Shown: positions 3,691 through 62,498, counted from the stretch's first letter. The stretch: DNA of 64,000 bases from Candidatus Poribacteria bacterium (GCA_965222225.1 CBDCTK010000002.1:5312001-5376000); one strand, 5' to 3'. Notes: generated by a model not told the origin, from the letters alone. Translations and numbers: made by a program.

Positions 3691-3808
3691 GATCAGCTGA
3701 GATCAACCGAACGATCAACTGAGTGGATAACGAAGGCGATAGTAAATCCTACAGTGGGGGATCAAGTGAGTGGACAACGAACGCGATAGCTAATCCCGAT
3801 AGAGATCC
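3691..3808 (+). repeat. GATCAA..GCGATAG structured mini-element cluster (2 full copies, 2 partial heads)
   Basis: Full copies start at 3713 and 3760; partial heads at 3691 and 3701. Confidence 0.85.
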
Positions 3809-4001
3809 TTCTCCTGATTGCGAATTTTTGTGGTATCGGCAATCATCAAATCGCCGATTTACTCTTTTAGCAGGGAATCTTCAAGGAGTGGCAACACAAA
3901 AAAACATGGGGCAGACTTCCCTTACACGCACCGAAATTGCTATGCCATATATTTTCAAGCATACCCCTTTTTTCATTAACGGCAAAAATCGCCATCGCCA
4001 C

Positions 4002-5987
4002 CTATCCCTCCTTAAGTTCCCGCTTCAGTTCGGAAATCTGATCTCGCAGCGCCGCTGCCTGCTCAAACTCTAGCCCGGCGGCAGCCTTTTGCATCTGAGA
4101 AGTCAATTGAGTAAGCAACGCTTGGATTTCTTCGGCGCCAACATCCGCCAATGTTGGGACAGCATCAGTTGTTTCTGATTCATCAGGTTTGTCCGTTAAC
4201 TTGGTAATGAGGTCATGGATAGTTTTGTCAATCGTGGTTGGCGTGATGCCGTGTTCCTCGTTATACGCCATCTGAATCTCGCGCCGTCGGTTGGTTTCAT
4301 CAATCGCGTTCCGGATGGCATCCGTGGCTTCATCGGCATACAGCAGCACCTCTCCATCCACGTTCCGAGCGGCGCGCCCCGCAGTTTGAATGAGCGATGT
4401 TTCCGATCGAAGGAAACCCGCGCGATCCGCGTCAAGAATCGCGACAAGCGACACCTCGGGGAGATCCAAACCTTCCCGCAAGAGATTAATTCCCACGATT
4501 ACATTGAAAATACCTTCTCGAAGTTCGCGTAAAATCTGCACGCGTTCAAACGTTTCGACCTCCGAGTGAAGGTAATTTGCCTTAATCCCAGCCTCCGCAA
4601 GATAATCCGTAAGGTCTTCCGCCATGCGTTTGGTGAGTGTTGTCACAATTACGCGCTGATTCTGGGCAACACGTGCGTTGATTACACCAATCAAATGATC
4701 AATCTGCCCTTCTACCGGGTGGACGACAATCTGCGGATCTATTAAGCCCGTTGGACGAATAATCTGTTCAACCACCTGATTGCTGCTGTGCAATTCGTGT
4801 TTTCCGGGTGTGGCTGAAACGAAAATAGCTTGATTGATATAAGAGTCCAACTCTTCAAAGCGCAGCGGACGATTGTCCAGTGCAGAAGGGAGGCGAAAGC
4901 CGTAATCTACGAGGGTTTCCTTACGTGAACGGTCGCCGCGATACATTCCACGTAACTGTGGCACCGTCACATGAGATTCGTCAATGAACATTAGGTAATC
5001 ATCAGCGAAGTAGTCAATCAGACAGTACGGTGGTTGACCCGGTTCTAGACCGGAGAGGTGACGCGAGTAATTTTCGATGCCGGAACAGTAGCCGACTTCA
5101 CGCAGCATCTCAAGATCAAAGCGTGCGCGTTGCTCAATTCGCTGTGCTTCCAGCAGCTTGTTGTTTGCGACAAAGTAGTCAATTCGTTCCTGAAGTTCTG
5201 TTTCGATGTTCACCAATGCTTCGTCAAAGAGTTCCGCGTCCGTCATAAAGTGTTTGGCGGGAAAGATTTCAACGGCGTCATGTGCCGATAATATCTCCCC
5301 TGTCAGTGTATCAATCTCAGTCAGTCGATCCACCTCATCCCCGAAAAGTTCGATTCGGTAAGCAGTGTTCGCATAAGCCGGGAACACCTCAATAACGTCG
5401 CCACGGGCACGGAAATTACCCTGCAAAAATTCGACATCGTTACGCTCATACTGAATAGTGACCAGTGCCCGCAAGAGTTTCTGACGCTTAATCACCTCTC
5501 CCACTTTAACCTCAACCTTATGAAGATCGTACTCCTTCGGCGATCCGATTCCGTAGATACAGGACACGCTGGCGACAATAATGACGTCACGGCGGGAGAG
5601 CAACGACGCCGTCGAGGCGAGCCTCAGGCGGTTAATTTCTTCGTTAATCTGGATATCTTTTTCGATATAGGTATCAGTGGAAGGGATATAGGCTTCCGGC
5701 TGGTAGTAGTTGTAGTAGCTGACGAAGTAATGCACCGCGTTATTGGGAAAGAAATCTCGAAACTCGCTGTACAACTGCGCCGCAAGAGTTTTGTTCGGGG
5801 AGATGACTATCGTTGGACGCTGCATCTCGGCAATTACGTGCGCCATAGTAAAGGTCTTTCCTGAACCTGTGACCCCAAGCAGTGTCTGTAATCGGTCCCC
5901 GTTTTTCAAACCTTTGGTAAGTTGACGAATTCCCTCTGGTTGATCGCCTTGAGGCTCGTAGTCTGAAATTAACTTGAACTCTTGCAT
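4002..5987 (-). CDS. uvrB: Excinuclease ABC subunit B
   Basis: [15 protein letters not shown] beta-hairpin, [15 protein letters not shown]-terminal UVR domain. Confidence 0.98.
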
Positions 5988-6030
5988 GGTGTTTCTTGCC
6001 GGGACGTATGATAGCTCCTATGGACATTGT

Positions 6031-7068
6031 TTACGGTATATCGGATGGACTTAGACAAATCTTGCCGAAATTTTCACGCGCTTCCATTATTCGGTGTGCT
6101 TCGGCGGCTTGGTGCAGAGGCAACACGCGGTCGATTATTGGATGCAACTTTCCCTGCTCCGCGAGACGAATAATCGTGCGTAATTCCGAGGTCGTACCCA
6201 ACGCCGATCCCATAAGTGTCAACTGCTTCTGATACATCTTGCGAATGTCGATTTCACCAATGTTGCCGGTCGTTACACCGCACGAAACGAGTCGCCCCTT
6301 TTTGGCAAGACACGCGATGCTCTTGTCCCACGTCGCCGCTCCAACATGCTCAAATACGACATCAACGCCGCGGTTGCCCGTTTCTTCACGGATAGTCTCG
6401 CTGAAATCTGCCTCCGCGTAATTGATTGTAAAATCGGCGCCCAGTTGTTGCGCGCGTTGCAGTTTCTCGTCGGTGCTTGCGGTCGCAAAAACACGCGCGC
6501 CGCACAACTTGGCAATTTGTAGCCCGGCGCTGCCGACGCCGCTGCCTGCTGATAAAATCAGCACGTCCTCTCCGGGACGAACCCCGGCACGGGCCACTAG
6601 CATGTGCCACGCCGTGAGGTACGCCATCGGCATCGCAGCCGCTTCATAGTAGGAAAGATGGGGGGAGAGTAACGTTGCATTCTCGGCGGGAGCTTTGACG
6701 TATTCGGCGTACCCGCCGTTGGTTTGGAACCCAAGGAGAATCTGCGAGTCACATAAATTCTCATCGCCGTTGAGGCAGTCAACGCACTGACCGCACGGAA
6801 TGCAAGGCGATAAAACAACGCTATCCCCGACAGCTACATTATGCACCTCGGCGCCGACCTCAACCACCTCACCGGCGATATCGGAACCCAGAATATGCGG
6901 GAAAGGTTGCACCTCCGGGCGATCGCGACGTGCACGAATATCAAGGTGGTTGACGGCGCAAGCGCAGACTTTTACCACGATTTCCGACGCAGCGATAGTC
7001 GGATCCGGCACTTCCTCATAACGCAACTTACCGATTCCGCCCTGCTCGTGGAAAACGACTGCTTTCAT
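6031..7068 (-). CDS. Zinc-binding alcohol dehydrogenase / MDR-family oxidoreductase
   Basis: CIPCGQCVDC...C structural zinc site, AGSGVG, ENFGKI. Confidence 0.9.
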   Translation of the reverse strand: MKAVVFHEQGGIGKLRYEEVPDPTIAASEIVVKVCACAVNHLDIRARRDRPEVQPFPHILGSDIAGEVVEVGAEVHNVAVGDSVVLSPCIPCGQCVDCLNGDENLCDSQILLGFQTNGGYAEYVKAPAENATLLSPHLSYYEAAAMPMAYLTAWHMLVARAGVRPGEDVLILSAGSGVGSAGLQIAKLCGARVFATASTDEKLQRAQQLGADFTINYAEADFSETIREETGNRGVDVVFEHVGAATWDKSIACLAKKGRLVSCGVTTGNIGEIDIRKMYQKQLTLMGSALGTTSELRTIIRLAEQGKLHPIIDRVLPLHQAAEAHRIMEARENFGKICLSPSDIP

Positions 7069-7087
7069 GAAGGCCCTTCGCTATGCA

Positions 7088-20539: not shown

Positions 20540-20604
20540 GATTAACCGACCGGATAGCGAATGCGACAATACTTCCATAGAGATCTCAGTGCGATAGCAA
20601 CCCC
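20540..20604 (+). repeat. GATCAA..GCGATAG mini-element (degenerate copy plus extra tail)
   Basis: GATTAACCGACCGGATAGCGAATGCGACAA...GCGATAGCAACCCC. Confidence 0.7.
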
Positions 20605-20916: not shown

Positions 20917-21196
20917 GAGCCTGTTTGAAAAGTACATTTGTAGGGTGCGCACTGCGCACCAACCTCTAAAAGCCCCAGAGTGGGATCAAGGGAGCGAATA
21001 GCGACTGCGATAGAGATCCATGAAGGTGTATAGAAACGCCAAAACCCCGTGCACCTAAGCCCCAGCGGGGATCAAACGAACGGATAGTGAGTGCGATAGC
21101 AATCCCATAGGTACGTAGCAGGCAACAATTAAGACATGGAAGAACTTCCCACAAATGACCAAAAATGGCTTTCCTATCGATTATTCAAACAGGTTC
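20917..21196. mobile_element. IS5-like MITE carrying a REP and two mini-element copies (20984, 21070)
   Basis: Terminal inverted repeats GAGCCTGTTTGAA / TTCAAACAGGTTC, flanked by TAA on both sides. Confidence 0.7.
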
Positions 21197-27679: not shown

Positions 27680-27759
27680 GATTAACTGAGCGAATAGATC
27701 AAACGACTGAACAAGGAGTGTGATAGAGATTCCGAGGCGATAGCAATCCCATAGATATC
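27680..27759 (+). repeat. GATCAA..GCGATAG mini-element, nested pair
   Basis: Inner copy at 27697 interrupts an outer copy starting at 27680. Confidence 0.8.
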
Positions 27760-39877: not shown

Positions 39878-40098
39878 GAATCTGGGAGTTTGTTTGAAAC
39901 TTTATTTTGGGTAGAGTCATTTGCCTTGAAATCAATCATGGGAATCGATAGTAATTGCGATAGAGCTCCTATAGAGATTCGGAATTAGTAGCTTGTAGCT
40001 TTTAGACTGACGACAAACATAAAACTTGGTACCCTGTCGTAAATCTTTTCGTCGCACGTAGATGTCCATAGTGACTATTCTTCTCGTAGGAGTTTGCT

Positions 40099-40953: not shown

Positions 40954-40971
40954 GCCACATGAATTGTTTGG

Positions 40972-41094
40972 CTATCGGTATATTCTGTCAACGACAGCAT
41001 CATGGTATGATGTAAATCCCATAGTGTTGGAAATTAAAATCCCGCAGATAACCCGCAATGCTCCCGCGAGCATGTACAAACGCTTGGTCAACAT
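40972..41094 (-). CDS. Putative 40-aa passenger peptide in IS copy 1
   Basis: GGAGG SD; MLTKRLYMLAGALRVICGILISNTMGFTSYHDAVVDRIYR. Confidence 0.4.
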   Translation of the reverse strand: MLTKRLYMLAGALRVICGILISNTMGFTSYHDAVVDRIYR

Positions 41095-41228
41095 GATATG
41101 CCTCCATTTCTCTCTTATAGAGATGTATTTTAGTGTGAATCAAGATTCCGAACACTGTCTAAAGTTATTGTACATTAAGAAAAGAAAAGCAAGCAAATCA
41201 ACCAAAAAGCAGTTAACTACTAAGTCCC

Positions 41229-41372
41229 TAGAGATTTCCTCAAACGAGTGACTAGATCAATCGACTGAATAAAGAACACGGTAGAAATCGCGCTGTAATA
41301 GGGTTCCCATAAAAATTTTCACCAGCCTTTGAAAGGCCCTGCGTGAGATCAAGCGAGCGGATAGCGATTCCC
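41229..41372 (+). repeat. Mini-element copies (41255, 41347), continuing the repeat tract split by the IS
   Basis: Left part is GCGATAGAGCTCCTATAGAGATT at 39957-39979. Confidence 0.7.
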
Positions 41373-41514
41373 TAGGTGTATAGCAATACTAAGTCACTTC
41401 ACATCAAATTCCAGGCGGGGCGGCAAGTGTATAACAACTGAGGTAAGTGTTTGTGCCGTTTTCTTGGATAGCTCCCGCTGCCGACCCTTGGTTCCAGAGA
41501 ATAAAACAGAGGAA

Positions 41515-41659
41515 CGACATGCTGCACGGTGTCGGAAACCGCTGTCAACTATTTAAATGGTCAATCAACAAGGCCAGATAATCGAAATCTTCCCTGCTTT
41601 TGTTCAACGCTTGATTGGCGCTGTATGTTGTGCCGTTCGAATGTAAAGAGTCGAGCTAA
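41515..41659. repeat. MITE/IS remnant, right part (homologous to 60716-60863)
   Basis: Shared ~150 bp ending in ATGTA(A/C)A(G/A)AGTCGAGCTAA. Confidence 0.6.
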
Positions 41660-41675
41660 TACCTTATGAGAAATT

Positions 41676-42980: not shown

Positions 42981-43133
42981 GCGGTTTATTTTCTAAGTAT
43001 TTAAGGCTTACGGGACTAGCACAACAGACTAGTTCCGCAACCCCTGCAGGACAAGTTTCCAGTTCGCCCCCGGAGATCTGCCACTTAACTACGGAGGCAT
43101 ATAATACTGCTACAAGCGTTTCGCTCCAGCGGA

Positions 43134-43336
43134 GATCAAAGGAGTGAATAACGACTGCGATAGGGATCTTCCATTTTACCCTGTCTTAGTAGTCTATTCT
43201 CCAGCTAGTTAATACTTACGACTGCCACAAGAGACATGTTTCGCAACCCCTACGAGCCTTTACGCATAGCCAGTTCTAATCCGTGAAATCCTTTAATCCG
43301 ATCAACTGACTGGACAAGGAAGGCGATAGGGAATCC
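43134..43336 (+). repeat. Two mini-element copies (43134-43172, 43300-43336)
   Basis: GATCAAAGGAGTGAATAACGACTGCGATAG and GATCAACTGACTGGACAAGGAAGGCGATAG. Confidence 0.85.
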
Positions 43337-43570
43337 TGATTCAGACAATTAGTAAAATTCGCATGCCTCATACCTTATACTTTTAACGAATCGACCACTG
43401 AGGTCAGTTGGGGACTTGGCTGAAGTAGCAGATGGGAGAAGACCATTACTGTTGATTGTCACTAATCTTGGACTCCGACACTCGCGGCGGTTTGACCTAT
43501 CATATCAACGGCATGTTGAAGAAGGATGGGGAGTTTGTAGCGCTTGTAAATGGCATAAAGTAGGCAGGAA

Positions 43571-46500
43571 ATGAGGAAGCGAGGAAGGCGGAGTATTGAA
43601 CTAGGAAGCAGGCAACGCAACCAGTCAAACCAAAGTTGGGGCATTCAATTCCACGTCTTGGGGTTCAACCTCTATCTTCCACATCGCGTCCTGCTCAGAG
43701 TTCATCACCTTCTGCCGAAGATATTCTCCTTCTATCATGTTGTCTCTTGTGCGTTTGGCAATGCACAACACCTGATATTACGAGTTTTTCTGAAGCCCGC
43801 GTTCTTGGTCGGGTTTGCTTGCCTATTCCTCCCGATTGATACCGTCCTCGCCCAAGTTCAATCCACCCCTCCAAACGATGCAAGCGAAGTATCCACTTCC
43901 TCTCCAGAAGACCCATCTAAAACAGATGAAGCCGCGAATCTCTCGTTAACTGACGTAGAGAAATCTTCCACCGCCAGGCTGGATCCGAGGGGTACTGCGC
44001 CTGAGAAGGAAACCGTTATCGGAGACGGTGATAAGATGTTCATGTCAGATAACTTCGTCCAAATTCACGGCAACGCGTTGATAAAATCCGAAGATGTTGT
44101 ACTATATGCCGATCACATCTGGGCAGATTTCGACGACAACATCATGCGCGCCACGGGAAATGTGAGGCTCATTGTCGGTAAAGAGGAGACTTTTGCCGAT
44201 GAACTAATCTTTGATCTTGAAACGAAAAAAGGTATCGCACGCGATGGATTCACGTTTGATGATCCATGGTATTTTGGCGGCTCCGAAATCTTCAAGATTG
44301 AAGACGACGAGTCCTACATCCGCGGAGGCAGGTTGACAACCTGTTCCTTGAAGCAGCCGCATTTTTATTTCTCCGCATCCCAAATCATCGTCAAAATCAA
44401 TAAGGAGTTGATTGCTAAGAACATTGTGCTAAACGTCGGAGGGGTACCGCTTTTCTACTTCCCTCTAATTCGTCGTGACCTTCGAAAAAAGGACAAACTT
44501 GCCAAAATCATTGTTAAACTCGGCACCGATAGTTATCAAGGCCCCTACCTTAGTATCATTCTACCAGTTTTTCGCCATTACCGGTATTCGGCGGAACTGC
44601 TGTTCGAGCAGAGCACCAGACGCGGTAGTGGAGGAGGAACGCAAGCCAAATACCGTGTGAACGATGTTAAATTCCAAGAACTTTTCATTCCGGTTCCGCC
44701 TGAAGCAACGCCGGGGCAGCGAGCGCAACTTAAGGAAAAGGCGGATGAACTTTCGGATCGCTTGCGAGGAGAATACGATAGATTCAAGCTGCGCGAAGTT
44801 TTCTTGAAGTATCAAATCAAAGACATAGATATTGAACGGGCACGTGAGAGTGTTGAGACTGTATACAGCCAACTCCGGGAGGAAAACGTAGATTTCGGCG
44901 AGATTGCTCAGCAACAGTCAGACCATCAAGAATCGCGCTATCGGCAGGGCGATATGGGCTTCCTCGTCCCGGGCGAACGCGACAAGGAAGGTAGGCTGAA
45001 GCTGGAACCCGCTCTTGAGCAAGTGGCGTTCCGTCTCCAGCCAGGCGAAATGAGCCCGATTCTGCGAACCGATTTTGCCTTTCACATTCTCAAGATAGAC
45101 CAAGTGCTTGATATTTATGGGGAACGCGAAGTTCAAGTGCGGCGCATTGACATCGCTATCAAACCAAGCGAGGAAACTCGAGACGCTATTCGAGCGGTCG
45201 GGAAAGAGCTTCAAGAGCGGGCAACCGCCGGTGAGCCGCTTGAAGGACTTGTCGCCGAATTCGATGGCGCCGAGATAGATGTTGTAAATGGTGGAGAATT
45301 GACACACTTGAACGAAATGGATCAGCGGTGGCGACATTCGGTTCGACGCCTAAAGCAGCCCGGTGAAATTACGCTGCCAGTCAATACCGACCGGGGTGTC
45401 CATATCTTTCAACTGATTGAGAGGGAATCCACACCCACATTTGAACAGGTCGCTCGGCAATTTGAAGCGGAATGGGAAGTGCTAAAACAGGAATTGCCTG
45501 CCCTAGAAACAAAGCCGAATCCAGACAAGGATGAGGGAAGGTTTGAAAGTACAAGGCGTGTTGAAAGTTCCGCGTATGCAAAAGGTGACTCGGACAGTGC
45601 CGAAGCTCTCTCGGAAGATGGAGAAGAGGAGGAAGAGATACAGGTCTATCAACAACACGGCTTCCGTGGCAAGTGGGAAGATCCGCAGGCAGTTGCGACG
45701 CAGGCACAAAGGCTTGATCGCGGAGAAACTAGCCGCGTCATCAAAGCCCCCGACGGATTTCGCCTGATAAAAGTGGAAAAAAAACGAGCCTATCGTGGCG
45801 ATTTTCTATTCCTGTCCCAAGATAAATACTCGGGATCGCGCCGAGAGCCAATCAAAACCGGGCAACAATGGACAATGCGATGGGGACACCATCATAAAAT
45901 CTTTACGCCTTGGGATAATCGACAGGAGGGACGGAGTCCGTTGAGTTTCAACGGACGTATGGCATGGTATGCGAGAACCTTCAAAGAGGGATACGGCACG
46001 CCCGAATCGACCATCAATTCCTTCGGGGTCTTCACATGGGGATCTGCCCTGACGGGGGTAGATTCTCATGACCTTGATCCCGATGAGAATCTCAAATTTT
46101 CGCGCAAGCGATTTGGGTCTTTTCTCTCGCGCCTTGAGGTCAAACACACATTGGATCTCACGGGCGAAGGTACGACAATTCTCCAGAAACTGCCCCAACT
46201 AACGATGCAATTTTCCCAAATGCAATTCGATCAACTTCCACTGTTCAAAACAGTCAATTCCGGGTTGACCAAGGCTGCCAAAAAACTGGATACGGATTTT
46301 CCAGTCCTTTCGATGTTTGCTTTTCCGACCCTCGACAATACACGCTTCGACCTTGACGTTGAATTTGGCAATTTCTTCAAGCAGCGATTCCGAGATGAAA
46401 GGGATATTTTCTTGCAAACGCTGGATCTTGGATTCGATCTTACAAAACAAACCACGATTCAGATAACGCCGTACCGAGAATTCCGCTTTGATTTGAGCTA

Positions 46501-47449
46501 CGATAGCAACCTGATTTGGCATGCGAAAGATACTGAGGGCAATCGGAACATCATCCGTGGCGTTCATAGTTTGAGAGCGAGAGGCAGTAACACCCTGTTT
46601 AGAATTTATGACATCAGCTTTATCCCGGGTGCGCGACGCATGCGCCATCAAATCCAGTCGAGCCTTTCGTTTGATTATCAACCCCCTGTCGACAGGGACA
46701 ACAACCTATATCAATTTGCGCCAAGCACGTTCTTCTTTGAGAGAAAGAGGCTCTCCTATAATTTCCGTACCAGTTTTGAAGTAAAAACTCGGCGTAGCAA
46801 AAGACCCTTGTCCCTGCTTGATTTCGATACAAGGCTACGGGCAGATTTTAGCGAGAACACCGTGAGGGGGCGCACATATGAACCAATCAGAAGCGACGTA
46901 ACGATTACACCGTTGGCGAGCCGTAACCTACGAATTAGTTTTAACATGACCAACGACCCGAATCTAGATCCTGCAAACGGCAAGCGCTTCAAAATGGTCG
47001 AATTCGCATCTAACGTCCGTTATAGTCGTAAGAAGTGGAACATGAGTCTCGGAAGTTCCTTCAGTAAGCGGCTTGCCTCAACGCGAGCATCGCGGAACAT
47101 TATTGGAAGCTTCCGCTTTGCGCCGAACCGGTTACTGAATCTCAGTGCTAGTCTCACATATAACTGGATTGAACGTCAGTTTTACCGCCAACAGATATCC
47201 ATTCAGCGAAATCTGCACGATTGGAATCTGCGCTTGTCGTGGTATCGTATCGGCATCAAGCGCAGCGCATCTGCCAATAATGTACGACAAGATTTCACAC
47301 TTCAACTGAATTTAATCGCGGATCCCACCGCATCGGTCGGGTTCGGCTACGACGCCACGACGGAGACGTGGGGCTTCAGGACATTACCCGCCGGTGTACC
47401 CTACAACGCCTTCAGCGCTCGGAACGCGCTTAGCAGATCCTATTTCTAA
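43571..47449 (+). CDS. lptD: LptD-like outer-membrane protein with inserted parvulin domains (start uncertain)
   Basis: OstA-like jellyroll, TTCSL..PHF, GGVPLFYFP, barrel strands, C-terminal RNLHDW; rotamase motifs at ~44660-45800. Confidence 0.82.
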   Translation: MRKRGRRSIELGSRQRNQSNQSWGIQFHVLGFNLYLPHRVLLRVHHLLPKIFSFYHVVSCAFGNAQHLILRVFLKPAFLVGFACLFLPIDTVLAQVQSTPPNDASEVSTSSPEDPSKTDEAANLSLTDVEKSSTARLDPRGTAPEKETVIGDGDKMFMSDNFVQIHGNALIKSEDVVLYADHIWADFDDNIMRATGNVRLIVGKEETFADELIFDLETKKGIARDGFTFDDPWYFGGSEIFKIEDDESYIRGGRLTTCSLKQPHFYFSASQIIVKINKELIAKNIVLNVGGVPLFYFPLIRRDLRKKDKLAKIIVKLGTDSYQGPYLSIILPVFRHYRYSAELLFEQSTRRGSGGGTQAKYRVNDVKFQELFIPVPPEATPGQRAQLKEKADELSDRLRGEYDRFKLREVFLKYQIKDIDIERARESVETVYSQLREENVDFGEIAQQQSDHQESRYRQGDMGFLVPGERDKEGRLKLEPALEQVAFRLQPGEMSPILRTDFAFHILKIDQVLDIYGEREVQVRRIDIAIKPSEETRDAIRAVGKELQERATAGEPLEGLVAEFDGAEIDVVNGGELTHLNEMDQRWRHSVRRLKQPGEITLPVNTDRGVHIFQLIERESTPTFEQVARQFEAEWEVLKQELPALETKPNPDKDEGRFESTRRVESSAYAKGDSDSAEALSEDGEEEEEIQVYQQHGFRGKWEDPQAVATQAQRLDRGETSRVIKAPDGFRLIKVEKKRAYRGDFLFLSQDKYSGSRREPIKTGQQWTMRWGHHHKIFTPWDNRQEGRSPLSFNGRMAWYARTFKEGYGTPESTINSFGVFTWGSALTGVDSHDLDPDENLKFSRKRFGSFLSRLEVKHTLDLTGEGTTILQKLPQLTMQFSQMQFDQLPLFKTVNSGLTKAAKKLDTDFPVLSMFAFPTLDNTRFDLDVEFGNFFKQRFRDERDIFLQTLDLGFDLTKQTTIQITPYREFRFDLSYDSNLIWHAKDTEGNRNIIRGVHSLRARGSNTLFRIYDISFIPGARRMRHQIQSSLSFDYQPPVDRDNNLYQFAPSTFFFERKRLSYNFRTSFEVKTRRSKRPLSLLDFDTRLRADFSENTVRGRTYEPIRSDVTITPLASRNLRISFNMTNDPNLDPANGKRFKMVEFASNVRYSRKKWNMSLGSSFSKRLASTRASRNIIGSFRFAPNRLLNLSASLTYNWIERQFYRQQISIQRNLHDWNLRLSWYRIGIKRSASANNVRQDFTLQLNLIADPTASVGFGYDATTETWGFRTLPAGVPYNAFSARNALSRSYF

Positions 47450-47571
47450 ACCGGATTTCGCAGCATGTCGAATGCCTCATCACCAGCAGGTTTCCCTCCC
47501 CGGTACAAACGACATAACAGGAAACCATCGACACTGGACTATAATCATTGATAGAGATTTTATAGTCCGCT

Positions 47572-47831
47572 GTAGGAGCGATCAAGCGACCGATTAGGGA
47601 GTGCGATAGGAATCCTCTTCAAATCGCGACCGCGATACAGCTCCCATAGAGATGGCGCCACACCGCCTGTAGGCGAGGATTGAACGAGTGAATAACGAGT
47701 GTGCGATAAAGATTCCCTCAAGTGACTTAATAGGACCAACTGAGTGAATAACGAAGGAGCAACTGACCGATAGGGGAGGCGCTAGAGTTCCCATAGAAAA
47801 TCCCACGCGATAGAAGGCCTAGGGCGATAGC
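47572..47831 (+). repeat. REP plus mini-element cluster (47580, 47678, 47734 with a nested copy)
   Basis: GTAGGAGC[GATC...]..AATCGCGAC host; several heads and tails. Confidence 0.8.
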
Positions 47832-48009
47832 TTTTCTCCGAAATTCAAGCCATTAATGCACTGTCATTTTAAAGAAATGGTATAATATATCGGAATTAGT
47901 AGCTTGTAGCTTTTAGACTGACGACAAACATAAAACTTGGTACCCTGTCGTAAATCTTTTCGTCACACGTAGATGTCCATAGTGACTATTCTTCTCGTAG
48001 GAGTTTGCT

Positions 48010-48864
48010 ATGGACATTTTGAATCTTATGAAAGAGTTTCCAAATCAAGAATCTTGTCTCAGATTTATAGAGGAAAAACGTTGGAAGGACGGTGTTTGCT
48101 GTATCCACTGTGGCAGTGAAAAAGTTGGACGCAAGAACAAAAACGACATTACTACTGGTTGGAATTGCTACGATTGTGAATCTAGCTTTTCGGCTACAGC
48201 AGGAACCATCTTCCATGGTACCAAGATACCTCTCCAGAAATGGTTTTTGGCTATCTCAATTCTTTCCAATGCCAAGAAAAGCATATCGAGTTGTCAGCTT
48301 GCTCGTGACTTGGACATGAATCAAAAGTCCGCTTGGTATATGGCAATGCGCCTCCGTGAGAAAATGAGTGATAGTGATGAATTGCTGAAAGGGATAGTTG
48401 AAGCGGACGAAACCTATGTCGGCGGCAAACCCAGAGCAAAATCTAAGAGAGGTAGAGGCACAAATAAATCTCCCGTCATCGGCGTAGTCGAGAGAGGCGG
48501 TCGGGTGGTTGCTAAATTCATGAAGGTTCTATCTGGTGAAAATATCAGAGAATTCATCCTTAGCAATGTCTCACCCGATGAGTCTATTCTTATGACTGAT
48601 GAATTTCGCTCTTACAATAGTCTGGACGAAGATATCGAAAGACATGTTATCCATCACCAAGAGAGATATGTTTCTGAGGACGGCGTAACTCACACCAACA
48701 CCATCGAGTCGTTTTGGGCTTGTGTCAAGAGGTCATTCTACGGAACGCATCATCACTACAGCAAGAAGTGGCTGCCACTGTATATCATGGAGTCTTGCTG
48801 GAAATATAATCGCAGAAAAGATGATGAGATTTTCATAAGATTTTTTGATGAATGCTTCACCTGA
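48010..48864 (+). CDS. IS1595-family transposase
   Basis: 3 aa differences from copy 1. Confidence 0.95.
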   Translation: MDILNLMKEFPNQESCLRFIEEKRWKDGVCCIHCGSEKVGRKNKNDITTGWNCYDCESSFSATAGTIFHGTKIPLQKWFLAISILSNAKKSISSCQLARDLDMNQKSAWYMAMRLREKMSDSDELLKGIVEADETYVGGKPRAKSKRGRGTNKSPVIGVVERGGRVVAKFMKVLSGENIREFILSNVSPDESILMTDEFRSYNSLDEDIERHVIHHQERYVSEDGVTHTNTIESFWACVKRSFYGTHHHYSKKWLPLYIMESCWKYNRRKDDEIFIRFFDECFT

Positions 48865-48882
48865 GCCACATGAATTGTTTGG

Positions 48883-49005
48883 CTATCGGTATATTCTGTC
48901 AACGACAACATCATGGTGTGCTGAAAATCCCATAGTGTTGGAAATTAAAATCCCGCAGATAACCCGCAATGCTCCCGCGAGCATGTACAAACGCTTGGTC
49001 AACAT
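48883..49005 (-). CDS. Putative 40-aa passenger peptide in IS copy 2
   Basis: MLTKRLYMLAGALRVICGILISNTMGFSAHHDVVVDRIYR. Confidence 0.4.
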   Translation of the reverse strand: MLTKRLYMLAGALRVICGILISNTMGFSAHHDVVVDRIYR

Positions 49006-49149
49006 GATATGCCTCCATTTCTCTCTTATAGAGATGTATTTTAGTGTGAATCAAGATTCCGAACACTGTCTAAAATGATTGTACATTAAGAAGAGAAAAG
49101 CAAGCAAATCGACCAAAAAGCAGTTAACTACTAAGTCCCTAATATATTC

Positions 49150-49230
49150 ATGCCGAAAGACTTCGATTCCTCTTCAATTGTCACATGGCGCGCCGTGTTG
49201 ATTGGTCTCCTCTTGAATCCCGACAACAAT
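49150..49230 (+). pseudogene. 5' fragment of a membrane-protein gene
   Basis: MPKDFDSSSIVTWRAVLIGLLLNP, then the frame runs into repeat DNA. Confidence 0.4.
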
Positions 49231-49300
49231 CTCTCTCCGTTTCAACGCGGTTTTCTGCCTCTAGGTTCTATTGGCATCTATGTTAGGCGCGTGCATAATC

Positions 49301-49624
49301 GTAGGAGGATCAAAGGAATGAATAATGACTGCGATAGAACTCCCATGGAGGTCCCCACGCCCATCGGGTTGGGAGACCCAACGCCTTCGGATGCCGGTGC
49401 ATGCCTACCGATGGTTTGGGCCCTCGTCTCCCTCCAACGGATTAAGCTGTGTCTATATGCCAAAAGCACAGAGAGAACCCGTAGGAGCGGGGATCAACTG
49501 AGCGAATAGCGAAGGCGATAGAGATTTCCTCAAATGCGATCAAGCGACTGAACAAGGAGCGATCAAACGAGTGGATAGCGAGTGCGATAGAACTCCCATA
49601 GAAATCCCCTCTCCTGATCGCGAC
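49301..49624 (+). repeat. REP plus mini-element cluster (49308, 49492, 49538, 49561)
   Basis: Host GTAGGAGCG[...]CTCTCCTGATCGCGAC is split by three copies. Confidence 0.85.
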
Positions 49625-49719
49625 AGCCCATAGGTTGGGTTGAACCCCGTGAAACCTAACAATCAAGCTGTTCTCAATGACCGCCGGAATCCCGTGCCAA
49701 TGCACGTGATTCCCCATAG

Positions 49720-50910
49720 AAAACGGATCTGTCTATAGAAAACCTGGGTACTGCTAAATGTCCAAACGACGAGATTTTCTGGTCTAAGCTCCGGGCAGAA
49801 TTCCAAATTCGTTTCGATCCAATATACCTTAACACCGGTTCCCTTGGGCTTTTGCCTGTTCAAATCGCTGATGCCGTGGCACAATACTATCGACTCTACA
49901 CGGCGCAAGGTCATGAGGCGCAATTCAGCACGGCGGAACAGCAGGCGAATGCTCGTCGTCGACTTGCAACCTTCATAGGTGCTGACGAAGACGAGATTGC
50001 TTTCACGCGAAATGCGACTGAGTCAATAACCGCCGTAATTGACGGCATCAAGTTGAATCCGGAAGACGAGGTCCTTACCACCGCGCACGAGTACCCCGCT
50101 GTGATATGCCGCTGGAAAAGGAGAGCAGGACGCTTTGGTATCAGGATTCGCACCGTAGACATACCGGGCCCGCCGGATAGTCCGGAACACATTGCAGACC
50201 TGTTTAAGCAAGCCATTACAAAGCGAACCAGAGTCATTGTTTTCTCCCACATTACCCGTGGTCGCGGCTTGTTGTACCCCGCAAAAGCGCTCTGCCAGCT
50301 TGCACGTGAACATGGACATATCTCTGCCATTGATGGCGCTCAGGTCGTCGGTATTCACCCCTTGGATTTACACGACATCGGCTGAGATTTTTACGCGAAC
50401 AGTTTGCACAAATGGGCGCTGGCGCCATCGGATTGTGGGGTTCTATACGTGCGACGAGACATCCAGCGACAATTGTGGCCCCGTGCTGGAGGCGCTCCAC
50501 CATGGGACGAGTCGGTGCAAGGATTCGGGCTTGTCGAGGACATTGGGAGCTACGCGGTGCCATTGTGGCTCGCCGTCGGCGATGCCCTGAATCTTATCGA
50601 CCAAATCGGTTTTGAACAGGTTGTCGCACGCGCGCGTATGTTATCACGCTACCTAAAAACCGAACTAATTAAGCGTCCCTATGTTCGGCTGGCGACATCG
50701 CTATTGCCCGACCTCTCTGGCGCGGGACTGACTTCGTTCGCTCATCGGCGTTTTACCGGAGAGATGGTACGCGAAGGAATCAACCGAAAACAGCGGTTCG
50801 TGACAAGCGGGGATTGGGATGGAGGTGTTGACAACACCTGTGTGTCAACACACTTCTACAACACGAAAGAAGAAATAAATCTATTTCTGGAGGCGCTTGA
50901 TAATCTGTAG
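49720..50910 (+). pseudogene. Class V PLP aminotransferase (cysteine desulfurase / isopenicillin N epimerase-like) with in-frame TGA at 50383 and no clear start
   Basis: DEIFW..LRAEF, YLNTGSLG, DGAQ, DLHDIG*DFYANSLHKW. Confidence 0.8.
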
Positions 50911-50954
50911 TCATAGGATTTGCACGGTGACAGGAGGTGACACGGTAGGCGCCG

Positions 50955-51008
50955 GTAGGAGCGATATCCCGATCGCGACTTCCTGTCGCGAGTAAAACTT
51001 GCTCTTAC
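50955..51008. repeat. REP doublet (REPIN)
   Basis: GTAGGAGCGATATCCCGATCGCGAC ... GTCGCGAGTAAAACTTGCTCTTAC. Confidence 0.7.
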
Positions 51009-51423
51009 AATTGGTTTGTCGTAACAATCTTCAATCATCAAACTGCAAAGAGAATCTTCAAGGTGAATAGCAGGAGACTACAATAACATGAAAATGCCCA
51101 ACCCCAAATTACCCAAAGTAGCTATGTCTATTATTCAAACAGACTCTAAATGGTATTTTCGCTAAGTAATTATCGTAAAACTTATACGGTTGAGCGACGT
51201 TCCCCCTTGACAAGGGGGTTGGTATGCATCTTACGTCCGATGGCTTTAGAATTACTACTGCCACTATACACTTACAATCAAGGTAATCCCAAAATCCCAT
51301 GAATCACTGTTCAGACAATGTTAGCTACCGACACTCAACACTTACCATATATTCTTAGATCGACTTTGTACATTTGTAGGATGGAATCGGCGACCATCAA
51401 TTCCCGATTTCCCCTCTTACTGA

Positions 51424-51611
51424 GATCAAGCGAACGAATAGTGAGTACGGTAGAACTCCGATAGAGTTCCCACCAGCACCGTAGGCGGGGATCAAATGAA
51501 CGAATAGCGATCAACACCGACCGGATAGTGGGGGATCAAGCGAGTGAATATCGAGTGCGATAGAACTCCCATAGACAATCCCGTGCGATATAGAGATCCC
51601 CTTGCCCCGCC
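51424..51611 (+). repeat. Mini-element cluster, including an apparent triple nest inside a GTAGGCGGGG..CTTGCCCCGCC REP
   Basis: Heads at 51424, 51490, 51509, 51534; stacked tails. Confidence 0.85.
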
Positions 51612-51667
51612 TTCGCCGCCACCACATAACGAATGCGTTAGAAAGCCTGCTGCGATAGCGATCCCCT

Positions 51668-52384
51668 TCAACGTAACGTCAGCCCACCATCAATGTATAG
51701 GACATTCCCCGTAGCATGTGGATTCCGCATCAAGTATAAAATCGTTTGAGCAACATCTTCGGCTTGAGCGATGCGCTTGGCGGGGAGTGTTTCGGCAGCA
51801 GATTCAAACATCTCGCTACGCTGTTTTCCCGGAAGTGAGTTGAATCTCGGGGTGTCGACTAACCCCGGCGAAACGACATTCACACGAATCGGCGACAACT
51901 CAACAGCCAGCGCTCGCCCCAACCCTTCAACCGCGCTGTTGATTGACGCCTGTGGCACGGCGCCCGGCTCGGGGTGTTGGCTGTATGCCCCCGCCATGAG
52001 AACAATCGAGCCGTCTTCTCGAATATTTGGTACGCCATACTTCACGGCTTGATACTGTCCCCAGAATTTGCTGTCAAACCCTCGCCGTGCGATTTCAACG
52101 TCAAGTTCTAGGAATGGCCCCAATGCACCCTCGTTTCCCGGTGTCGTTAAGTGGTCAAATTCACCGGCGATATCGAAAAGTCGCTGAATTGATCCTGAAT
52201 CTCGCACATCAACGGTGACAATGTGGACATCTTCCTGTATCCGATCTCTTGCCCGTGCTAATTTCTCCTGTGAGCGACTGGCGATGACAACCGTTGCCCC
52301 TTCTACGGTGGCGGCTTGAGCAGTCGCGAAGCCAATTCCTGAACTACCTCCGATGACAATAATCTTCTTGCCCGATAAACTCAT
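51668..52384 (-). CDS. SDR-family oxidoreductase (atypical; lacks YxxxK)
   Basis: GGSSGIG, IRVNVVSPG, IDGG. Confidence 0.9.
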   Translation of the reverse strand: MSLSGKKIIVIGGSSGIGFATAQAATVEGATVVIASRSQEKLARARDRIQEDVHIVTVDVRDSGSIQRLFDIAGEFDHLTTPGNEGALGPFLELDVEIARRGFDSKFWGQYQAVKYGVPNIREDGSIVLMAGAYSQHPEPGAVPQASINSAVEGLGRALAVELSPIRVNVVSPGLVDTPRFNSLPGKQRSEMFESAAETLPAKRIAQAEDVAQTILYLMRNPHATGNVLYIDGGLTLR

Positions 52385-55430: not shown

Positions 55431-55432
55431 GA

Positions 55433-60515: not shown

Positions 60516-60569
60516 AATCGGTTAATTTCCCTATGAATGCAGTCGAGAAGTAGAATGCCGAGTAATCTA

Positions 60570-60861
60570 AACTCGACTTTGTACAAACGTACAACAGTTG
60601 GGTTGAGCGGAAAGCCGTACAGCACCAAATCCGTAGGCGGGAATCAAGGGAGTGAATAACGACCGCGATAGAGATCTCCTTGCCCCGCCGTGCAGCATCA
60701 AGATTCAAGCGAAATCCAACACGTTCTGCATGGTAGCAGAAACCACTGCCGACTTTTTCAATGGTCAACCAACAAGACCAGATGGTTAAAATCTCTTCCA
60801 CTTTTCTTCAACGCTTGATTGACACCATCTGTTATCCCGCTTAAATGTACAAAGTCGAGCT
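60570..60861. mobile_element. MITE with CTCGACTTTGTACA inverted ends, carrying a REP plus a mini-element (60642-60678)
   Basis: CTCGACTTTGTACA / TGTACAAAGTCGAG; another left end at ~51357. Confidence 0.65.
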
Positions 60862-60863
60862 AA

Positions 60864-61098: not shown

Positions 61099-61127
61099 TA
61101 AGCCGCTGAAAGTGCCTAATAATTGTG

Positions 61128-61778
61128 CTATGTTGTAGAACGACTGTTGAAACAGCAAGTTTCTAAGGGAGTGTAAACTGCCCCGCTTTGTCGAAGGTGG
61201 CTTTGGACAACTCGGATCTCATTGACGACCATGGTGGCGCCATTGATTGTATCATATTGTTGGAACACGTCAACGAGAGGTTTCAAATCAATTCGATGTT
61301 TGAGCCGGGAAAGAGTTAAATGTGGACTGGACGGCTTCTCATCACGCTCATATCCATGGCGACTTAGTCCTATATCGATTTCTCTGGCAATGGCAATGAT
61401 CTCATCTGCGCCGGTTTTCACGCCTGCCCAAATAATCCTTGGACGAGTCAAGTTTGGGAAGGCGCCAATACCCCCTATCTCCATTGAAAAAGGTGACCGA
61501 GTATCCGCCACCTGTTCAATCGCATTTTTGATTACGCTAATTTGATTTGGGGCGACATCTCCAAGGAATTTCAAGGTCAGATGAATGTTTCCGCGCTTTA
61601 CCCATGAGGCTCCGCGGATGTCCTTCCTGAGTTCCTCCTGAGCGGAAGTTAGCAGCGTCTGAATCGCTTCGGGAATCTCAATTTCGACAAAGCACCGTAT
61701 CTGTTCTTGGTTCACACTTTCTATGGGGATTTGGTTCGGGTTCAAGCCAACGGACTGCTTGATTTTCAACCTGACCAA
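61128..61778 (-). CDS. thpR: RNA 2',3'-cyclic phosphodiesterase (2H family); real start probably GTG ~61715
   Basis: HLTLKFLG and PHLTL motifs. Confidence 0.92.
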   Translation of the reverse strand: MVRLKIKQSVGLNPNQIPIESVNQEQIRCFVEIEIPEAIQTLLTSAQEELRKDIRGASWVKRGNIHLTLKFLGDVAPNQISVIKNAIEQVADTRSPFSMEIGGIGAFPNLTRPRIIWAGVKTGADEIIAIAREIDIGLSRHGYERDEKPSSPHLTLSRLKHRIDLKPLVDVFQQYDTINGATMVVNEIRVVQSHLRQSGAVYTPLETCCFNSRSTT

Positions 61779-61780
61779 GG

Positions 61781-62386
61781 TTAAAAATCATCTCCCGAAT
61801 CAAAGAGATCAGTTGATCGCATCACGGAATACAGCGCTTTGCGATTCCCGTACACAAACTCTAATCCCGATATCACAGTTAGGACAAGAGGTGCGTACAT
61901 CATGAAATAGATCGGCCTAAACTGTTCAATCCATTCATCCCCCACTCCATGCCCATGGAACACTAGCAGAATCAGGCTCATGAAGATAACAACCATCTGC
62001 GAGGTAGCCTTATATTTTCCCCACTTGTTCGCTGCAACAACAGAACCCTGTGTGGCGACAAAAAGCACCCGCAACCCTGTCACAACCAATTCGCGTCCCA
62101 TGATTGTTAGAACCATCCAGCCTGGGATAAGTTTTTCACCGAACAGGCAGATGAGTGCTGCGCCCACTAGCAACTTGTCCGCAAGCGAGTCAACAAATTT
62201 GCCGAAACTCGTTACCCCGTGTTTGCGAGCAATTCGCCCATCAAGGAGATCGGTTAATGCCGCCACTCCAAAAATAATTGCGGGCAGCAAACGGTAATAT
62301 CGAAAAGAAATCATGAGTGGAGGAATCATCAAGATGCGCGAAACCGTCAAACCGTTCGCCAAATGTTGGAGCGTGCGAAAGTACAT
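61781..62386 (-). CDS. pgsA: CDP-diacylglycerol--glycerol-3-phosphate 3-phosphatidyltransferase
   Basis: TDLLDGRIAR....T.FGKFVD..ADK. Confidence 0.92.
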   Translation of the reverse strand: MYFRTLQHLANGLTVSRILMIPPLMISFRYYRLLPAIIFGVAALTDLLDGRIARKHGVTSFGKFVDSLADKLLVGAALICLFGEKLIPGWMVLTIMGRELVVTGLRVLFVATQGSVVAANKWGKYKATSQMVVIFMSLILLVFHGHGVGDEWIEQFRPIYFMMYAPLVLTVISGLEFVYGNRKALYSVMRSTDLFDSGDDF

Positions 62387-62442
62387 CGTTCAATCACTTA
62401 TCCATCAAGGCAATCGTACCTGATTCTAAACTAGGCACTCTT

Positions 62443-62498
62443 GTAGGGTGCGCACTGCGATCAAGGGAGTGAGTAGCGACCAGGATAGAGATCCCACC
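62443..62498 (+). repeat. REP hairpin split by one mini-element (62459-62493)
   Basis: GTAGGGTGCGCACTGC[GATC...GATC]CCACC versus the intact REPs at 3643 and 20940. Confidence 0.85.

Follow-up and report, generated by a model that had tools for sequence, protein, structure and literature searches.

A strand-specific hairpin repeat of Candidatus Poribacteria whose orientation follows replication-type strand asymmetry

The analysed window, a stretch of 64,000 nucleotides from a Candidatus Poribacteria genome (GCA_965222225.1, CBDCTK010000002.1:5312001-5376000), contains dispersed copies of a short repeat that reads from GATCAA to GCGATAG. A search of the window with the pattern GATCAANNGANNGNNNANNGANNGNGATAG, allowing at most 2 mismatches, identified 16 copies, 16/16 on the + strand, while 0.00 were expected from shuffled sequences. 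Loosening the pattern to at most 4 mismatches yielded 23 copies on + and 0 on -, and a search with the 23-nt core yielded 21 and 0, respectively. In ORF-based gene calls, the copies at 3713, 3760, 20984, 21070, 60642, and 62459 had minus-strand genes on both sides, those at 41255-49561 plus-strand genes, and those at 27697, 51424, and 51534 convergent genes, which matched the contexts given in an earlier note on this DNA. The following copies were annotated:

3713..3742, + strand: hairpin repeat copy (pattern search), with a truncated 12-nt unit just before it (3701-3712)
3760..3789, + strand: hairpin repeat copy (pattern search)
20540..20569, + strand: degenerate copy with 3 mismatches (loose search)
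20984..21013, + strand: hairpin repeat copy (pattern search)
21070..21099, + strand: hairpin repeat copy (pattern search)
27697..27726, + strand: hairpin repeat copy in a convergent-gene gap (pattern search and gene calls)
41255..41284, + strand: hairpin repeat copy with 2 mismatches, adjoining an IS1595-like copy (pattern search)
43134..43163, + strand: hairpin repeat copy (pattern search); intergenic region empty in several congeners
43300..43329, + strand: hairpin repeat copy (pattern search), in the variable intergenic region shared with the 43134 copy
47580..47609, + strand: hairpin repeat copy (pattern search), immediately 3' of the word GTAGGAGC (GTAG-tagged repeat)
47734..47756, + strand: degenerate 23-nt core unit (core search)
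49308..49337, + strand: hairpin repeat copy (pattern search), the commonest variant (45 identical 30-mers on contig C2)
49492..49521, + strand: hairpin repeat copy (pattern search)
49538..49590, + strand: two stacked units, a 23-nt core and then a full 30-nt copy, with a common GCGATAG end
51424..51453, + strand: hairpin repeat copy with 2 mismatches (pattern search)
51490..51512, + strand: degenerate 23-nt core unit (core search)
51534..51563, + strand: hairpin repeat copy in a convergent-gene gap (pattern search and gene calls)
60642..60671, + strand: hairpin repeat copy with 1 mismatch (pattern search)
62459..62488, + strand: hairpin repeat copy with 1 mismatch (pattern search), immediately after the word GTAGGGTG at 62443

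The repeat unit, 30 nt in its core and about 40 nt once its tail is included, is a strand-specific hairpin, and the GATCAA...GCGATAG strand is the one that folds. A short outer stem (A2-T28, T3-A27, C4-G26) encloses two 2-bp helices (pairs 7-23 and 8-22, and 11-19 and 12-18) whose sequence is free but complementary. A conserved tandem G.A/A.G lies between these helices and the hairpin loop, GRATA, is closed by G.A. Mutual information was 1.14 bits for 11-19, 0.96 for 8-22, 0.77 for 7-23, and 0.40 for 12-18, and 0.21 for the next-best pair. The four covarying pairs were Watson-Crick in 70-92% of copies, with an additional 24% G.T at 7-23 and 14% at 12-18. The earlier note's claim that the G.A and G.T pairs are possible on + alone held genome-wide for the folding strand of 1051 copies, in which G.T/T.G outnumbered A.C/C.A by 460 to 68 at the four variable pairs and the G.A pairs were kept in 93-96%. 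These copies comprised 628 distinct 30-mers and 258 stem combinations, the latter drawn from 8 outer and 6 inner dinucleotides. With RNA parameters, 976 of 1051 copies folded more stably as the GATCAA strand than as the complement (mean folding energy -4.63 versus -2.00 kcal/mol); with DNA parameters, 800 did, with 182 ties. In a logo of the 1051 copies, GATCAA was preceded by A/G/(C or G) and GCGATAG was followed by ARATCCC, with neither GTAG nor CGTC at the foot of the hairpin; GTAG words in the vicinity are parts of other repeats. A search of both strands of the window against Rfam 15 at gathering score gave 0 matches.

Contig C2 carried 1051 copies, 584 on the + and 467 on the - strand, and contig C1 carried 0 and 3, respectively. 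The earlier claim that all copies lie on one strand was therefore correct for the window and incorrect for the chromosome. The window falls within the longest one-orientation run of the chromosome, which comprises 23 clusters, all +, between 5.251 and 5.446 Mb. Copies were predominantly intergenic (995 of 1050 classified copies, ~95%) and, rather than being evenly spread, were clumped and nested, with 0 to 71 copies in each 100 kb. Of neighbouring copies separated by less than 400 nt in G000, the genome of the window, 279 were direct, 61 convergent, and 20 divergent; in genome G015, the counts were 13, 15, and 1, respectively. As the earlier note had it, orientation bore essentially no relation to the direction of transcription: where the flanking genes were co-directional, 371 copies ran with them and 314 against them, and no correlation of copy orientation with gene-strand fraction was found (rho 0.07, -0.04, and -0.12). 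Convergent-gene regions showed no excess of copies (134 in 455 regions, and 176 in 456 divergent regions).

Orientation was compared with gene-corrected GC skew, with shuffling and 2000 circular shifts at the cluster level as controls. Spearman's rho was -0.53 for 85 bins of 50 kb, -0.58 for 54 bins of 100 kb, and -0.67 for 29 bins of 200 kb. In G000, 71% of 479 clusters had their folding strand on the C-rich strand, a share reached by 0 of 2000 circular shifts; agreement rose to 100 of 118 clusters at |r| 0.03-0.05. Use of third codon positions only, of genes of at least 900 nt, or of a 500-nt mask around copies left agreement at 68-71%. In G015, which belongs to another family, 67 of 87 clusters (77%) and 108 of 148 copies agreed (correlation -0.64, 0 of 2000 shifts). 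Agreement was weak in a partial sample of G002 (15 of 25 clusters, p = 0.42) and in 8-kb loci from other MAGs (52 of 86, p = 0.066). The bias is not a composition effect: the element favours the C-rich strand in spite of being G-rich itself, and GGGAGGG, a G-rich control word, was found on that strand in only 191 of 481 cases. These results indicated that orientation is tied to replication-type strand asymmetry. The replication-linked orientation envisaged in the earlier note was thus recovered in two families, as a bias of about 70-77% and not as an absolute rule.

The strongest cluster of DnaA boxes (8 in 1 kb, next best 4) was located at 2.6095 Mb, between dnaN and dnaA, and corrected skew was positive to its right. 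Copy orientation switched near oriC/dnaA in both G000 and G015. If the leading strand is G-rich, a common rule that the position of oriC backs here, and oriC lies at dnaA, the C-rich strand would be the leading-strand template. The folding strand would then lie on the leading-strand template, instead of on the lagging-strand template as expected from the IS200/IS605 rule that the note had invoked. Independent markers of polarity were ambiguous, because the sense strands of the single 16S rRNA gene (in both genomes) and of rpoB lay on the C-rich strand and that of the L2 cluster did not; gene strand bias, tested as a further marker, was absent. The sign of GC skew flips many times along both chromosomes, so that present-day fork direction cannot be assigned domain by domain. 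Bias was 65-73% in every age-proxy class, and such flat values do not separate insertion bias from loss bias.

GTAG-tagged REPs of the same genome showed the same polarity (REP1 150 of 193; GTAGGTTGGGTTGA 87 of 121). GTAG-REP1 is a near-perfect palindrome of which both strands fold equally. Where a GTAG word occurred within 300 nt, 432 copies were co-oriented with it and 94 were not; the bias persisted (300 of 437) in copies with no GTAG word within 1 kb. Copies were nested inside other copies and inside GTAG REPs, and 23-nt units were stacked on one common GCGATAG end. The intergenic region at 42981-43405 of the window was missing in several congeners, in which the flanking genes abutted, and held one or two copies in others. 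Between species, copies have been both gained and lost. All 9 genomes of the genus and all 4 of a second genus contained the element, whose copy number varied from about 200 to 1300 between genera; it was not found in 16 further members of the order. In a library scan, only Candidatus Poribacteria records were among the matches listed.

Five Y1_Tnp matches were detected in the genome, none of them part of repeat units; one RAYT gene has its own GTAG REP on its flanks. Inverted flanking copies occurred at loci L001, L005, L257, L263, and L266, and homologues of the genes at inverted-copy loci were, in other genomes, unflanked or flanked by their own GTAG repeat. The Y1 genes at L001 and L005, copy-flanked in G000, could not be assigned as cognates: their homologues elsewhere were unflanked or resided in element-free genomes. 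A YIHYNP-type RAYT sits where the element is most densely clustered in G000 and G015; in a genome without the element, however, it is flanked by a different repeat of its own, GTAGGTTGGGTTGA. When Y1/RAYT genes and their homologues were compared across genomes, no HUH gene was tied to the element, and no RAYT gene was consistently flanked by it. REP/RAYT systems occur in the genome and share the polarity of the element, which makes a Y1/HUH enzyme working in trans the leading candidate.

We consider it somewhat probable (roughly 0.55) that the element is a small mobile REP/SDR-like repeat that spreads strand-specifically, with an orientation set or filtered as single-stranded DNA at the fork. 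Copies would insert into intergenic DNA, including other copies and GTAG-tagged REPs, and would be oriented, or sorted by orientation, during the single-stranded phase at the fork. The outcome would be a folding strand on the C-rich strand in about 70-77% of cases; with a G-rich leading strand, this would be the leading-strand template. A single-stranded DNA stage and involvement of a fork strand are thereby implied. Because the polarity reverses that of insertion-biased IS200/IS605, a 'survivor' bias, in which copies with the folding strand on the lagging-strand template are preferentially excised or lost, is favoured. A much more tentative extension is that Poribacteria harbour a class of single-stranded DNA hairpin micro-elements, based on sheared G.A pairs, whose polarity, common to the GTAG REPs, is opposite to that of every known single-strand transposon. 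Their entry into the nascent lagging strand, or into the leading-strand template, might follow an undescribed mechanism, or fork-coupled excision might sort them; either way they would form a genome-wide recorder of replication direction in a phylum without cultured members.

Filtering might also proceed without an enzyme, if copies insert either way, a stable hairpin is deleterious or readily deleted when on the lagging-strand template, and the copies that present their weakly folding complement there survive. In E. coli, hairpins on the lagging-strand template are preferentially deleted. The difference in stability between the strands fits this explanation, the polarity observed, with the stable strand on the leading-strand template, is as it predicts, and Di Nocera 2013 discusses instability of hairpin repeats. 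However, GTAG-REP1 is equally biased although its strands fold equally, the bias does not grow with age proxies, and the hairpin is short, with 7 canonical pairs. Enzyme-free filtering is judged unlikely.

We regard it as quite unlikely that the element functions as RNA, as a transcribed hairpin for protein binding, transcript stabilisation, or termination, with only an indirect link to skew. G.U pairs, tandem sheared G.A pairs, and GNR(N)A-type loops are common RNA motifs, and the hairpin combines a GNRA-like pentaloop with tandem G.A pairs. According to PMC3733652, an RNA role is often assumed for REPs. In four metatranscriptome libraries, contigs extended from flanking genes into copies, but they lack strand information and could include DNA. 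Indifference to flanking-gene direction, the lack of an excess between convergent genes, the lack of an Rfam family in the window, and an orientation that tracks DNA-level asymmetry in two genomes all argue against such a function.

Passive history, in which local duplication makes co-oriented clusters and the skew link reflects segments inverted together with their copies, appears improbable. It accommodates the mostly direct close neighbours in G000 and the many skew sign changes, which suggest rearrangements, but inversions preserve an association and cannot create a consistent sign; the sign was constant over 479 clusters, in a second family, and in copies far from other repeats, and shuffling and circular-shift controls were exceeded for clusters, not just for single copies. 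Least probable is a polar host signal with KOPS/Chi-like logic, by which a host protein reads replication or segregation direction from one strand: about 1000 chromosome-wide copies, a polarity switch near oriC, and protein-contact-like positions conserved across two families fit it, but copies are clumped and nested, vary widely in number between genera, are not found in most of the order, and fill orthologous sites in some species that are empty in others, and signals of this kind typically show a bias stronger than 70%.

The preferred reading of a mobile repeat oriented at the fork bears on REP-like repeats, which are among the commonest bacterial non-coding features and whose mode of spread is largely unsettled. 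The strongly strand-asymmetric fold allows the fork strand to be asked, a question symmetric REPINs cannot answer. The answer, consistent in two families and in GTAG REPs, is the reverse of the IS200/IS605 rule, and this reversed polarity shifts models of how RAYT/REP systems move from biased insertion towards biased excision. For uncultured sponge symbionts, with their weak GC skew and its many sign changes, repeat orientation also offers a practical guide to replication direction and to past inversions. With its conserved G.A/GRATA architecture and free stems, the hairpin provides a clean substrate for structural and binding studies.

Among known systems, REP/BIME/REPIN sequences mobilised by RAYT (TnpA-REP, Y1 HUH) are likewise intergenic imperfect palindromes of 20-40 nt with hundreds to thousands of copies. 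As in the element, their stem positions vary between subfamilies with complementarity kept, according to PMC3333891. The host genome itself has GTAG REPs and RAYT genes, and element copies nest in, and co-orient with, those REPs. In contrast to REP/RAYT systems, the element has no GTAG or CGTC at the hairpin foot and no consistently flanked RAYT gene; it keeps G.A pairs and has combinatorial stems, whereas REPs have a few master sequences, and its neighbours in G000 are mostly direct, unlike the inverted pairs of BIMEs and REPINs. No report of replication-linked orientation of REPs was found in the literature searched.

In IS200/IS605 elements, the active strand is on the lagging-strand template and orientation is coupled to the replication fork, as described in PMC3333891, PMC3971601, and PMC5027513. 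IS608 and ISDra2 share with the element strand-specific hairpins, there recognised as single-stranded DNA, and a fork-coupled orientation. Their active strand would lie on the G-rich strand, whereas the folding strand of the element lies on the C-rich strand, as assigned from oriC and skew. The element also differs in its 30-40-nt units without ORF, transposase gene, or cargo, and in its weaker bias.

The SDR1-8 repeats of Nostocaceae, which Elhai and co-workers are said to have described in 2008, are reportedly 21-27 nt long and form a hairpin with compensatory changes. They are also said to insert into themselves and other short repeats and to occur in one coherent genome group, and RNA intermediates were reportedly proposed for them. 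We know of no reported replication-linked polarity of SDRs. Insertion of SDR5 in HIP1 is described in PMC5861425. The element resembles SDRs in its very small size (23-nt core or 30-nt unit), a hairpin backed by compensatory changes, nested insertion into itself and other repeats, and restriction to one coherent group of genomes. This likeness is drawn by description, not sequence, and spans different phyla; unlike the RNA intermediates proposed for SDRs, the data on the element favour a DNA-level asymmetry.

In the window, every copy of the hairpin element lay on the + strand: all 16 matches to GATCAANNGANNGNNNANNGANNGNGATAG with up to two mismatches (shuffle expectation 0.00), 23 of 23 with up to four mismatches, and 21 of 21 for the 23-nt core by itself. 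ORF-based gene calls bore out that these copies occur between minus-strand, plus-strand and convergent genes alike. The claim of the earlier note that all copies lie on the + strand thus holds within the window but not chromosome-wide. The 5.64-Mb contig of the source genome (G000:C2) carried 584 + and 467 − copies, indicating that the one-strand pattern is a local fact; the 63-kb contig C1 carried no + and three − copies. The chromosome's longest stretch of uniform orientation (5.251–5.446 Mb; 23 clusters, all +) contains the window, and gene-corrected, replication-type GC skew (r) in the window was weak (−0.03 to +0.01).

A logo of 1051 copies yielded the consensus [A]G[C/G] GATCAA nn GA ny G RATA rn GA nn GCGATAG ARATCCC, with GCGAT/HIP1-like ends. 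Its four variable dinucleotides covaried, with mutual information of 1.14 (positions 11–19), 0.96 (8–22), 0.77 (7–23), and 0.40 bits (12–18), and 0.21 bits for the next best pair. Watson-Crick pairing at the four variable pairs amounted to 70–92%, with additional G.T pairing at 7–23 (24%) and 12–18 (14%). The two short helices are separated by a conserved tandem, G9.A21 (982/1051 copies) and A10.G20 (1013/1051). The GRATA loop is closed by G13.A17 (1013/1051), and the outer stem comprises A2-T28, T3-A27, and C4-G26, plus G1.A29. The variable pairs of the 1051 copies included 460 G.T/T.G versus 68 A.C/C.A combinations, showing selection for folding on the GATCAA strand only. Nearest-neighbor models, which give no credit to G.A pairs, agreed: the GATCAA strand was the more stable one in 976/1051 copies with RNA parameters and in 800/1051 with DNA parameters (182 ties). 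The proposal that the G.T and G.A pairs work only on this strand was confirmed. Stem variation was combinatorial, without a few master sequences, as eight outer and six inner dinucleotides occurred in 258 combinations and 628 distinct 30-mers. No Rfam family matched at gathering score. In many copies, short-unit tandem runs of the ATAGNNNNTCCC type lie immediately beyond the GCGATAG end (e.g., window 47600–47830 and 49590–49620).

When one genome per prokaryotic species was searched, the exact pattern was found in at least 101 stretches, and all 80 of those listed belonged to Candidatus Poribacteria MAGs. A cyanobacterial origin, suggested by the GCGAT/HIP1-like ends, was accordingly rejected. 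Among 30 relatives examined with at most one mismatch, all nine genomes of the same genus carried ca. 650–1300 copies each, and all four genomes of one genus in another family carried ca. 200 copies each. One of the remaining relatives had four copies, and the element was not found in 16 of the 30. Of the 1050 copies classified, 995 were intergenic. Comparison of orthologous loci in nine congeners showed 12 copies oriented as in the window and one in the opposite orientation. The intergenic region at window 42981–43405 contained one or two copies in congeners G001, G004, and G006 and in the source genome itself, was short and copy-free in four other congeners, and was missing in G005 and G009, where the flanking genes abut.

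Copies also occurred stacked and nested. At window 49538–49590, 23-nt units were stacked before one single GCGATAG end, and nesting in GTAG-tagged REPs included the forms GTAGGGTGC(copy)...CTGCGCACCAGCC and GTAGGAGC(copy)GATC.... Neighbors less than 400 nt apart in G000 were in the same orientation in 279 cases, convergent in 61 and divergent in 20. In G015, the genome from the other family, 15 of 29 such pairs were convergent, commonly 40–71 nt apart. Convergent pairs on G015:C1 are REPIN-like (e.g., 1755271/1755319, 1979592/1979640, and 2087440/2087489), and direct arrays dominate in G000. Every copy begins with GATC, and a second GATC lies one base past the end in 290/1051. A GATC target-site duplication, to which some filled and empty GTAGGAGC^GATC sites pointed, was not general, with GATC in place in only these 290 tails. 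A search for empty GTAGGGTGCGATCC sites found none.

The window further contains two copies (47883–49139 and 39979–41230) of a larger mobile element, an insertion sequence of 1.26 kb that carries a 284-aa ORF. The ORF encodes a putative IS1595/ISXO2-type zinc-ribbon DDE transposase. The insertion sequence is present in at least 35 copies with 99–100% identity on C2. In four RNA-library runs, contigs connect 47882 directly with 49140, sharing eight bases, which indicates a site without this insertion sequence in other strains.

A cis role of the element in mRNAs is unlikely. In co-directional gene contexts, 371 copies ran with the genes and 314 against them, and binned orientation showed no correlation with the share of plus-strand genes (rho 0.07, −0.04, and −0.12). 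The proposed independence of orientation from transcription direction was thus upheld. There were 134 copies across 455 convergent regions and 176 across 456 divergent ones. Metatranscriptome data from two studies (eight runs) contained 41–79% of sampled words of window 42500–52000. In four of these runs, contigs, which are strandless and possibly include DNA, led from a gene into a copy and ended there; assemblies end at repeats.

To separate replication-type skew from the coding component, copies were masked and the skew of plus-strand genes was averaged with that of minus-strand genes to give r. Orientation of the element along G000 was clustered beyond single intergenic regions, with 164 switches among 479 2-kb clusters, compared with 238 ± 11 (minimum 203) in shuffles. 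Orientation and r were anticorrelated, with Spearman coefficients of −0.53 (85 bins of 50 kb), −0.58 (54 of 100 kb), and −0.67 (29 of 200 kb). The folding strand was the C-rich strand in 71% of clusters, a value reached in none of 2000 circular shifts (maximum 63%). Orientation therefore follows replication-type skew as the earlier note had anticipated, but as a bias rather than an absolute rule. From the lowest to the highest class of |r|, agreement was 60/104, 81/117, 73/103, 100/118, and 21/30 clusters. The bias remained at 68–71% with third codon positions only, with genes of at least 900 nt, and with a 500-nt mask around each copy.

Base composition does not account for this link. The association with skew runs against composition: the element itself is rich in G, and GGGAGGG, a G-rich control word, was on the C-rich strand in just 191/481 cases. 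Plain GTAG was on that strand in 48% and GCGATAG far from copies in 49%. The bias was unchanged across age proxies (pattern mismatches, stem integrity, and 30-mer copy number), which could not distinguish biased insertion from biased loss. In relative terms, the assignment of the folding strand to the C-rich strand is firm.

Orientation was compared with corrected skew in two chromosomes and a fragment of a third. For G015, a single 4.69-Mb contig, all 148 exact copies were listed (69 +, 79 −) and r was estimated from 100 sampled 20-kb stretches. With three-window smoothing, the folding strand was on the C-rich strand in 67/87 unmixed clusters and 108/148 copies, a level of agreement reached by none of 2000 shifts; the correlation was −0.64. 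Agreement was 57.5% without smoothing (reached by 70/2000 shifts) and 72% with five-window smoothing (4/2000). Loci of 8 kb from other MAGs pointed in the same direction without reaching significance (52/86; p = 0.066), as did the first 1.07 Mb of G002, with 15/25 clusters (p = 0.42) and 20/45 copies.

GTAG-tagged REPs shared the bias. REP1 (GTAGGGTGSGCAYYGCSCACC) was present in 206 copies in G000 at up to one mismatch (window sites 3643–3663, 20940, and 62443) and in 139–363 copies in all nine other genomes of the genus. Elsewhere it had at most one match per genome, G015 included; the bias in G015 is therefore independent of REP1. At least two further GTAG families, GTAGGAGCGATCYCC and GTAGGTTGGGTTGA, occur in G000. 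The GTAG-reading strand was on the C-rich strand in 150/193 REP1 copies (51/73 among those with no hairpin element within 1 kb), 87/121 copies of GTAGGTTGGGTTGA, and 86/145 of GTAGGAGCGATCYCC. The unrelated repeat word AAAACTCGGTTTC showed no strand bias (114/214). Hairpin copies with a GTAG word within 300 nt were co-oriented with it in 432 cases and opposite in 94, and the bias persisted in hairpin copies more than 1 kb from every GTAG word (300/437). Because REP1 is a nearly perfect palindrome, its bias cannot stem from unequal hairpin stability. The more economical common cause of the bias of both repeats would be a strand-specific enzyme.

No cognate enzyme of the hairpin element could be established among the Y1 genes of G000 and the relatives examined. 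G000 contained five Y1_Tnp matches. Locus L004 (G000:C2:3726239–3729466) encodes, at 1020–1860 of the locus, a RAYT-like Y1 protein (NHVH ... YIMKNP), apparently frameshifted into two ORFs. This gene was rejected because a GTAG REP of its own (GTAGTAGGCAYAC...GTRTGCC) lies on either side, as in a classical REPtron. Locus L001 (G000:C2:3080255–3080728, minus strand) encodes a 157-aa Y1 protein with the HuH motif DHIH and YIKNQEAHH. By comparison with the motifs in Table 1 of PMC6006769, its sequence fits a subclass 1.2-like Y1 protein (Quentin et al., 2018), a subclass not reported to have an associated repeat. The G000 gene is flanked by hairpin copies, and such copies lay within 20–41 nt of the gene in five of nine congeneric loci, which are possibly orthologous and hence non-independent. 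Homologs occurred in element-free genera and were not found in two of four genomes of the second element-bearing genus, and this candidate was rejected. Inverted copies flank the RAYT fragment at locus L005, but full-length homologs in five congeners were unflanked, and this candidate was likewise rejected. A YIHYNP-type RAYT lies within the densest element cluster of G015, and in G000 the densest cluster (40 copies within 21 kb) contains a fragment of a relative. The YIHYNP-type candidate was discarded as its ortholog in an element-free genome is flanked by GTAGGTTGGGTTGA repeats, probably its own REP.

Assignment to fork strands relied on the origin. The strongest DnaA-box cluster of the G000 chromosome lies between dnaN and dnaA (2.6095 Mb; eight boxes per kb, next best four). 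Corrected skew was +0.03 to +0.05 over 150 kb to the right of oriC and negative from 60 kb to its left. Leading strands are usually G-rich. The sign of the skew at oriC matches this polarity and would place the folding strand on the leading-strand template, with the sequence of the nascent lagging strand. In G015, r and copy orientation both switched ca. 35–45 kb to the left of dnaA (1.876 Mb). The chromosome-wide map suggested by the earlier note thus showed a switch near oriC/dnaA in both genomes; the fork strand itself we could only infer.

Other potential markers of the leading strand gave a mixed picture. GC skew was weak, with many sign changes along G000:C2 and G015:C1. Cumulative skew of G000 peaked near 0.85, 3.1, and 4.7 Mb and reached its low points near 2.5, 4.2, and 5.5 Mb. 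Genes showed no overall strand bias (49–51%). The sense strand of the single 16S rRNA gene was the C-rich strand in G000 and G015. The sense strand of rpoB was likewise the C-rich one, and the L2 cluster had its sense strand on the G-rich strand. An apparent strand bias of long genes (141/364) was at least in part artefactual, given the lower sense-strand skew of such genes; leave-one-out skew gave 41–45%. Sense-strand GC skew on G000:C2 fell from 0.071 in ORFs of 300–600 nt to 0.042–0.044 in those of at least 1500 nt. Such length dependence can bias skew-based strand estimates where long genes dominate a window. Second DnaA-domain genes were present far from oriC in G000 (C2:602775–603212; 393-aa open frame, 135.8 bits to Bac_DnaA) and at 1,080,779 in G015.

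The description that fits the element best is a small mobile repeat of REP/SDR-like type that folds in a strand-specific manner. Its orientation is coupled to the asymmetry of the replication strands, as is that of the GTAG REPs in the same genome. We favor processing as single-stranded DNA at the replication fork, in which the bias would arise from preferential excision or loss of copies with the active strand on the lagging-strand template. Excision or loss is favored because the polarity reverses that of insertion-biased elements. In open-access article text, no description of these repeats in Poribacteria was found, nor any report of replication-linked orientation of REP-like repeats. The finding is of interest to the field of REP/RAYT and single-strand transposition, and the element can serve to indicate replication direction in uncultured genomes. 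The earlier note had expected the lagging-strand-template rule of IS200/IS605 elements; instead, the folding strand was on the C-rich strand, the probable leading-strand template. According to PMC3333891, PMC3971601, and PMC5027513, orientation of IS200/IS605 is the reverse. Given a G-rich leading strand, the Poribacteria element and IS200/IS605 would therefore have opposite fork-strand polarities.
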